Source: Lytechinus pictus
Taxonomy: Eukaryota
NCBI RefSeq assembly: GCF_037042905.1
Contig: NC_087250.1
Span: 16,122,001-16,186,000, forward strand
Direction of reading: 5' to 3'
Length of the DNA stretch: 64,000 bases
Part shown: positions 12,601 to 15,600 of the stretch, piece after piece
Layout of the letters: every line of letters begins with the position of its first letter
Position numbering within the stretch: the stretch's first letter is position 1
Notes under the pieces: model-generated
What the model was told of the DNA's origin: nothing
What the model saw: only the letters and a program-made list of their open reading frames with translations
The model's database searches: none
Translations under genes and position numbers: made by a program

Positions 12601-15600
12601 TAACCGCACCCCCAACTTTGGAATTAAAAAAAAAAAAAAATCCTCACATTATATTTGAGGTACGAAGAAACAAAAACTAAGTTAAAGATTTCAAAGTATC
12701 CAAAGAGATTACCGGTATGCGAAAATCTGCTGTTCTTGATCAATTCATCTACAATGTTTGCAAGAAAGAAAGGTCCCGACAATATTGGCCACTTACACAC
12801 TCACTCACCTCACAGTCAGTGTACACACACACAGCACTGCCGTTCTTGTACATTGCAAACTACGATACGGTACCAGTACATCTTATCAAATAATGATCTG
12901 TGTCTTTCCCGCCGTAGGAGGAAGAAACATTCACATTTCTTGCATCACAAACTCACAATCACTTTCAGAATTTGTCTAGCATTCGATGTCTTAGCATGAA
13001 TTTTGGATACGGGATTACAGGAAGGTTCAAGAGATAAAGAAATTGGCATTTTTTACAGTTGTTTTGACGGCTTCGTGCCGTCTCTCTCGTTGCGTGATGT
13101 TCATGGTATCTTATGAAAAGCAAACGGGAAAGAAAAAAAAAGCTGGCGCGAAACGGGACTTTGGAGGGGATTGAGGGTTAAAATGAATAGCGCCAGCTTA
13201 AGTCGCACTATAACCACAATACAACGCAAGCTAGCTCAGCTAACTCAACTCTCGCGCTCGCTCAGCTGTGACAAAATATTACCGAGTATGCTTGGCTTCT
13301 CTTTGAACTTAGCCAGGGAACTTCGCTGCTTTGAACCGAGAATAAAGTCGAAATTAGTGTCATGAAGGTGGGTGCGTTTGTTATAATCGCTTCTCATTAC
13401 CCGCGGCTCATACCCCTCTAAACGACATTGCCCTGGGCGGCTACGCCCGGCCACTCGATGTGTTGTGAACTGGCAGACGTCTTACACGTTCGGGAGGGGT
13501 TACGACGGCCTGGCTCAGACCCGTCACCGTGGATAAACCGCACCCCCGACTTTTGCTTCTATCCCGCCGAGAAAAAGGTGCGGTTAATAAACCGTTACTT
13601 ACGGTAAACTACTCATTGATCCCCCTTTTGATAATGAAGTCTGAAAACTTATTCAGCCATAGAGAACACATTGTTTGTGTACAAAATGGCACATACCTAC
13701 CAACTAATTTTCAGACTATTTCATCCGTTTGAGTGGTATCCCTTACTACTGCCCCATATGTTGAAATCTATGTTGTATTTAAAGCATTCTTTAGCTACTG
13801 CCTATTATGTACACGTAAATGTACATGGTAATATATGTTTTAAGCATTCTCTAACTAGTGCTCCATATTTAAAATCCACTTCTGTCCATCTTTGTTTTAA
13901 GCATTCCCTAACCACTGCCCAATAATATTAAAATCTGTTCTGTAAAAAAAATAAAAAAATCAACCTTTAATTACTGCTCCATTTATTGAAATCCATGTTA
14001 TAAGTATCCTTTATACGTAATTCTGTGTCGTCATAGGTATGCTAACAGAGCCAAGAAGAAAACACATTTTCAGCCACAGAAAACACATTGTGTACAAAAT
14101 GGCACATTTTTTCAGACTTTTTCATCTCTTTTGATTGGCATCCCTTACTACTGTCCCATATGATGAAATCCATGCTGTAGGCATTCTTTGTAAGGAATTC
14201 TGTGTTGCTGTAGGTACGCTAACAGAGCCAAGAACATCAAGTACAAACCAAAGATCAACGAACCTCTAATTAATTTGTAACTTCCTTGTGTAGCCTAGAA
14301 TACAGGTGCTCACCACAGTACCCAGATCCCCCAAATTTTAAGTGGCATGCCTGACTACTGCCCCCATATGCAATCATTCTCTAACTGTTACCCCATATAT
14401 TGAAATCCATGCTGTAGACATTCTTTATATGGAATTCTGTGTTGCTGTAGGTACGCTAACAGAGCCAAGAACATCAAGTACAAACCAAAGATCAATGAAC
14501 CTCTAATTAATTTGTAACTTCCTTGTGTAGCCTAGAATACAGGTGCTCACCACAGTACCCAGATCCCCCAAATTTTAAGTGGCATGCCTGACTACTGCCC
14601 CCATATGCAATCATTCTCTAACTGTTACCCCATATATTGAAATCCATGCTGTAGGCATTCTTTATATGGAATTCTGTGTTGCTGTACAGTGTAGGTACGC
14701 TAACAGAGCCAAGAACATCAATTACAAACCAAAGATCAATGAACCTCTAATTAATTTGTAACTTCCCTGTGTAGCCTGGAATACAGGTGCTCACCACAGT
14801 ACCCAGATCCCTCCAAATTTTAAGTGGCATGCCTGACTTCTGCCCTCTATGTTGAAATTCATGTTGTAATCATTCTCCAATTATTGCCCCATATATTTCA
14901 TGAAATCCATGCTGTAGGCATTCTTTATATGGATTTCTGTGTTGCTGTAGGTACGCTAACAGAGCCAAGAACATCAAGTACATGTACAAACCAAAGATCA
15001 ATGAACCTCTAATTAATTTGTAACTTCCTTGTGTAGCCTGGGGGGCGTTTCATGAAAGGACTTGTCAGACAATTTATCCGACAAGTCCTGTTTTATCCGA
15101 CAGTTACCATAGTAACATTACCTCTCAGCCAATCAACATCAGAGAAAGATGTCAGATCTGACAACTTGTCGGATGAAAATGTTGATGAAACACTCCCCAG
15201 GAATACAGGTGCTCACCACAGTACCCAGATCCCCCCAAATTTTAAGTGGCATGCCTGACTGCTGCCCCCATATGTAATCATTCTCTAACTGTTACCCCAT
15301 ATATTGAAATCCATGCTGTAGAAATTCTTTATATGGAATTCTGTGTTGCTGTAGGTACGCTAACAGAGCCAAGAACATCAAGAACAAACCAAAGATCAAT
15401 GAAGATCCAAAGGATGCCTTGCTGAGGGAATTCCAGGAAGAGATACAGAGGTTGAAACAAGCTTTAGATAAGAAAGGACCGGGAGGAGGAAGGAAGAAGC
15501 GAAAGAGAAGAAAACCCGGAGAAGAAGGTATGCTGTTATTGTAATAAATAGAAGAAGAGCTTCCAAGTAGAACAGATCTTCCGTATTTAGTACTGAAAAT

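Follow-up and report, generated by a model that had tools for sequence, protein, structure and literature searches.

Tandem copies of a splice acceptor in a sea urchin kinesin-II gene look like a duplication scar of the kind known from lancelets

How does the splicing machinery find the authentic start of an exon when the preceding intron holds near-identical copies of the same acceptor, and do such copies encode a product of their own? This question is raised by the intron between exons H and I of a kinesin gene in a 64-kb window of Lytechinus pictus DNA (the whole stretch analysed, to which all positions refer), where an earlier note had proposed that the acceptor copies encode a motor-only kinesin. 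Here, we compared the copies with the true junction, with the other exon ends of the gene and with RNA data, and the array looks like a harmless duplication scar of a kind known from lancelets, and not like a new motor-only kinesin.

Host gene and anatomy of the array

Eighteen exons in the window, with AG and GT ends, can be joined in one uninterrupted reading frame. Its 677 residues all agree (677 of 677) with residues 66-742 of XP_063957114.1, the 95 kDa subunit of Lytechinus pictus kinesin-II, which shares a 90% cluster with P46871 and clusters with the L. variegatus and S. purpuratus proteins. On this protein identity, we assign the host gene to the kinesin-II 95 kDa subunit (KRP95, KIF3B-like). 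Exon H matches the end of the KIF3B motor domain, and exon I, whose 3′ part is purine-rich, matches the neck linker and neck coil of kinesin-2 structures; an RNA contig covers 15354-15499 without differences. The features discussed below are collected in Table 1.

Table 1. Exons, acceptor copies and further exon-end copies in the window
Feature	Positions	Strand	Basis
Lone copy of the acceptor of the window's first exon, starting at 383	368..409	+	
Exon H (8th exon in the window), end of motor domain, donor GTAAGT	12015..12156	+	homology; contig match without differences
Degraded repeat of the exon H 3′ portion and its donor (GT to GC at 12447), hairpin insertion 12229-12391 inside	12195..12453	+	
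Oldest acceptor copy (exon part 14037-14057, ~21 nt)	13981..14057	+	sequence comparison
Copy 14214, with the acceptor and 49 nt of exon; PLINL-stop at TAA 14278-14280; CAG/GT of background level after 14305	14158..14305	+	
237-nt unit holding copy 14451, stop 14515-14517	14306..14542	+	
244-nt unit holding copy 14695 (7-nt insertion before AG), stop 14759-14761	14543..14786	+	
Unit holding copy 14951 (6-nt insertion in exon part), stop 15021-15023	14787..15039	+	
~160-nt multi-copy insertion with inverted ends, dividing the last unit	15040..15200	.	
Rest of the last unit, ending at the authentic acceptor	15201..15354	+	
Authentic exon I (helix 6 end, neck linker, beginning of neck coil), donor GTATGC	15355..15527	+	homology; contig
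84-nt array, 6 upstream copies of the exon 12 acceptor	19453..20042	+	
Array repeating the end of exon 13 with its donor 18 times downstream	21177..23156	+	
Degraded repeats of the end of exon 14 with its donor, 2 passing the probe	23611..24065	+	
Array repeating the end of exon 16 with its donor 8 times downstream	25817..27060	+	

Five copies of the AG/GT acceptor precede exon I, starting at 14037, 14214, 14451, 14695 and 14951, and TRF reports a period of 237 with 3.6 copies and 90% matches over 14155-15039. Base-by-base comparison with the true junction gave contiguous identity over 48 bases for copy 14214 (20 upstream and 28 downstream), 59 for copy 14451 (31 and 28), 44 for copy 14951 (16 and 28, with a single change at -17) and 32 for copy 14695 (5 and 27, ending at the insertion before the AG); copy 14037, of which only 3 + 3 bases match, is older. 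This agrees with what had been noticed at first, namely two exact repeats, one copy with a single upstream change, one with a 7-nt insertion, and an older one. The five copies are far beyond chance: when the intron was shuffled 200 times, the best match of a 30-nt junction probe had at least 11 mismatches (median 14), against 0, 0, 0, 5 and 7 in the real copies.

The four young copies carry bases 1-49 of the 173 exon bases, and copy 14037 carries bases 1-21. All four young copies have a T at +29 (AAC to TAC) and a common breakpoint after exon base 49, both absent from the true exon, which bears out the earlier view that the copies were amplified from one another. Private changes have accumulated as well, with a K-to-N replacement in copy 14695 and an insertion in the exon part of copy 14951. 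The insertion at 15040-15200 is probably a MITE-like element, and RNA depth over it is several hundred on both strands.

Each unit contains ~80 nt after the breakpoint (14263-14345) for which no counterpart exists before the first young copy or anywhere else in the window. The same intron holds an element of ~1050 nt with 32-nt terminal inverted repeats (12562-13608). The insertions 12229-12391 and 15040-15200 are both short, multi-copy, bounded by inverted ends and located inside exon copies; their flanks, CAG...CTG and CTG...CAG, respectively, are mutual reverse complements and not a direct target duplication. Elsewhere in the window, a short resemblance to the acceptor and start of exon 6 was seen by eye 89 nt upstream of it (9037-9060, below the probe threshold given below), a degenerate TGA repeat of ~1.4 kb directly follows exon 10 (17268-18663), two minisatellites lie downstream of the kinesin gene (19-nt unit, 14 copies, 32066-32327; 43-nt unit, 23 copies, 35160-36147), and apparent coding exons of another gene with Cys/His zinc-finger-like motifs were recognized by eye on the minus strand (38780-42600).

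An in-frame stop lies 65-71 nt into each young copy. Were one of them joined to exon H, the frame would be kept and the motor core would be whole, and the four copies would give nearly the same ending, so that a functional monomeric motor-only kinesin of 352 aa (331 + 21) ending in PLINL can be conceived. The PLINL-stop ending had been ascribed to all copies and is present in four of the five; copy 14037 instead reads YANRAKK, followed by unrelated sequence up to a stop at 14161-14163. Moreover, the common ending is a consequence of copying and not of selection. The neck linker of kinesin-2 has 17 residues and ends in DAL, according to the relevant passage of PMC2973807. Counting back from this terminal DAL, 11 of the 17 residues are kept and six, DPKDAL, are lost, and the product would thus stop inside the neck linker rather than after it, as had been supposed. 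The young copies also have Tyr in place of an Asn found in all 18 homologues that hold the motif (19 examined). No AATAAA or ATTAAA occurs in 14037-15354, so the transcript would run through further junctions and is predicted to be a target of nonsense-mediated decay (NMD). With a background-level donor and no RNA depth on copy-specific sequence (see below) in addition, the proposal that the copies encode a motor-only kinesin is not upheld, and we regard it as extremely improbable.

Similar arrays along the gene

All 18 acceptors and 17 donors of the gene were used as probes on both strands of the window, allowing at most 8 mismatches in 30. Copies were found at seven of the 35 exon ends, namely the acceptors of exons 1, 9 (exon I) and 12 and the donors of exons 8 (exon H), 13, 14 and 16, and none was found elsewhere in the window or on the minus strand. 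The 12 acceptor copies all lie upstream and the 29 donor copies all lie downstream of their own exon; tandem duplication produces such a polarity by its geometry alone, and it does not speak for selection. The array behind exon 13 is the densest of the gene, with GT kept in 18 of 18 copies and GTAAGT in most.

The AG or GT is kept in 36 of the 41 copies in the gene (five of five in the exon I array) compared with ~32 expected from local divergence, a rough count that is biased upward, for the probes contained the dinucleotide and indels inflate the divergence. At this rough level, there is no clear sign that splice dinucleotides are purged. The exon I array is one product of a process acting along the whole gene.

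These further arrays bear on the possibility of regulated unproductive splicing, in which inclusion of a copy as a poison exon, at some stage or in some tissue, would lower KRP95 through NMD. A premature stop with junctions downstream marks a transcript for NMD, and each young copy has such a stop in frame with many junctions downstream; by this established rule, a leaky product is a predicted NMD target, as the earlier note had stated. NMD targets are also under-represented in steady-state RNA. But a general mutational process is indicated by the six further arrays of the gene, the exon I array is young, has taken up indels and an insertion and is perhaps allele-specific, and no credible donor would close the poison exon (-1.4 compared with 5.8-11.9 for true donors, on a rough matrix). 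We consider regulation of this kind very unlikely.

Choice of the last acceptor and use of the copies

Splice sites were scored with matrices built only from the 17 donors and 18 acceptors of the gene itself, and the scores are accordingly rough. A weak CAG/GT donor had been noted ~92 nt into every unit; it is found there in three of the five copies, lies at 258 nt in copy 14951, where the ~160-nt insertion has moved it, and is missing from copy 14037. Its score of -1.4 is reached by 34% of 1513 intronic GTs, and the 17 true donors, each left out in turn, score 5.8-11.9. Among the gene's 18 acceptors, the true one of exon I has the lowest score on this matrix (-3.6), which makes competition from the copies plausible.

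What distinguishes the true exon probably lies farther downstream. Bases 50-173 of exon I are 76% purine with 22 purine-rich 4-mers, compared with 40% and 0 in the matching span of the unit. Purine-rich 4-mers of this kind may act as splicing enhancers. Use of a copy together with the true donor would create an exon of 577-1491 nt, compared with 54-198 nt for the 17 internal exons of the gene, and splice sites that are closest across the exon get paired when flanking introns are long, according to Carranza et al. (PMC9225289). Given that acceptors identical over 48-59 nt are ignored, the deciding signal probably resides in exon bases 50-173 and the donor, and the locus can be taken as a natural test of exon definition.

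Each unit also has a second AG (14294, 14531, 14775 and 15037) with a better pyrimidine tract, and these have the four top scores (8.8-9.7) among 149 intron AGs, above the true acceptor. In three units, the second AG lies 12 nt before the weak CAG/GT, and a possible in-frame micro-exon of 12 nt would result, for which no RNA support was seen.

Three raw rRNA-depleted RNA runs (~6% of each sampled) and the contigs of one run (X15) were compared with 10300-17260; the runs probably come from the species of the window, judging from the exact agreement of three exon pieces. The exon H bin had sense depths of 3.05, 5.03 and 3.31 (~19-fold when summed over exon H), and the bin of exon 17103 had 3, 2.47 and 1.34. 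In each of the three runs the depth was 0 over 14261-14959, three bins that comprise most of the array. Over 14028-14260 it was 0, 0 and 0.21, and this last value together with 0.15 in the preceding bin amounts to about one read and fits unspliced RNA; for depth over near-identical copies, the treatment of reads that fit two of them is unstated. The earlier note had called for a search for junctions from 12156 to the upstream acceptors. Among the joints listed, a set dominated by repeat-derived reads, there was no exon H joint of any kind, and copy use was judged from depth and contig pieces; the zero depth over 14261-14959 bounds copy use at ~15% (0 of ~19, with NMD active), so that lower or NMD-hidden use is compatible with the data.

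The X15 contigs are in line with these depths. Record 3 (depth 20.6) shows no difference from exon H and stops exactly 29 bases beyond the junction of that exon, and record 7 (depth 23.6) begins at 15354 and contains the true exon without differences. If contig overlaps of 30 nt are assumed, the two records are probably neighbours with no branch into a copy kept, because copy and exon differ at +29 and a retained copy path would have cut record 3 one base earlier; contigs lose rare forms, and the sequenced animals may carry fewer copies. Overall, the main splicing product is undisturbed by the array, as seen from the intact protein, the true exon in contigs and the lack of depth on most of the array. 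The suggestion that the spliceosome passes these near-identical acceptors, most likely by exon definition, holds up, in that RNA shows the true exon in main use.

Another contig speaks to the array itself. Record 6 (941 nt, depth 2), which aligns to 13608-14478 with 26 differing and 34 gap letters, contains copies 14037 and 14214 and confirms these two in other animals. Its last letter is unaligned exactly at +29, which suggests an allele with fewer units in which the 14214 unit runs into the true exon; a collapsed repeat would look alike. The record aligns from just after the 12562-13608 element with 85 letters left over, and the element may be absent from that allele. An over-expansion of the array in the assembly could be suspected, as no X15 contig is placed on 14494-14959; the chance of such an artefact is very slim, however, because the copies differ by substitutions, by 6- and 7-nt insertions and by the 160-nt insertion, and the independent record 6 spans two of them.

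A different outcome of copy use would be recursive splicing, in which the copies are appreciably used, the splice rebuilds a donor, and splicing to a later acceptor then restores the normal mRNA. All five copies begin with AG/GT, and the rebuilt donor, formed where the final 3 nt of exon H meet the copy's first 6 nt, scores 6.4 on the gene's matrix, which is within the top 3.5% of intronic GTs and near the bottom of the true-donor range. Donor-rebuilding exons occur in sea urchin as commonly as in other deuterostomes, according to a passage of PMC6224609. On the other hand, the U1 pairing energy of the rebuilt donor (-4.3) is weaker than that of all 17 true donors (-4.5 to -11.5), the copies are without the downstream donor that defines an RS-exon, and the true exon rebuilds an identical site yet is kept. 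A GT start is shared by three of the 17 downstream exons of the gene, and the acceptor arrays of exons 1 and 12 persist without one. Moreover, apart from about one read's worth, the array has no sense depth in rRNA-depleted RNA, in which, at low depth and among the joints listed, no intermediates were visible. We give this reading little credence; if true, the array would be a chain of self-correcting sites, tandem duplication of an AG/GT acceptor would be a one-step origin of a ratchet point, and the locus would show how ratchet points arise.

A probable mirage array and its known relatives

The array is very probably an intronic minisatellite produced by repeated local tandem duplication across the intron–exon border (a ‘mirage’), removed by splicing and near-neutral. 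An older duplication with its break ~21 nt into exon I would have left copy 14037. A later one, with its break after base 49, would have gained the T at +29 and been amplified to four units of ~237 nt, which then took up small indels and one insertion; the order of these steps follows from the changes that the copies share. Only the last acceptor is followed by the remainder of the exon, with its purine-rich part and, after 173 nt, a real donor. In our model, exon definition selects this acceptor for that reason, and the upstream copies leave with the intron. Such an array would be close to neutral and probably variable in copy number between alleles.

Tandemly duplicated intron–exon borders were named mirages in amphioxus, where they are described in the globin genes BflGb6 and BflGb9 and in Adh3, with splicing undisturbed and three or six units depending on haplotype (passages of Ebner et al. 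2010, PMC3087553). The sea urchin array has a border-spanning head-to-tail unit in the adjacent intron, on the same strand, with a partial exon and with the dinucleotide kept in many copies. As in BflGb6, it consists of minisatellite-like tandem copies of the intron's 3′ end together with the exon's 5′ portion and, as in the mirages described in those passages, many copies keep AG or GT, splicing is normal and both exon ends can be affected. It differs in unit length (237 nt compared with 150-160 nt and 10-72 nt in amphioxus), in the seven arrays of a single gene and in the insertion inside one unit. For echinoderms, no paper on mirages was found in the open-access literature searched.

RS-exons, as described in passages of Blazquez et al. 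(2018, PMC6224609), resemble the copies in that splicing to an acceptor with GT behind it restores a donor; unlike them, the urchin copies are without a credible donor, the rebuilt site is weak and no intermediate was seen. A donor-side analogue is found in human genes. The 37-bp VNTR in intron 7 of F7 and like cases in 6-16, CBS, lamin B2 and PDGF are covered in passages of Borensztajn et al. (2006, PMC1557585); in these cases, a minisatellite lies across the exon–intron border and repeats the exact splice site, the pseudo-sites are normally silent and the copy number is polymorphic. The same passages report that the nearest pseudo-sites of donor-spanning minisatellites are used in two human genes, which counts against reading the copies as silent. 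Whereas repeats of the F7 type multiply donors downstream of the exon, the exon I array repeats an acceptor upstream; the arrays of exons 13 and 16 are direct counterparts of the human donor repeats. The kind of repeat is thus already known, the exon I array is a further instance, and as things stand it matters little beyond adding another case of a described repeat type.
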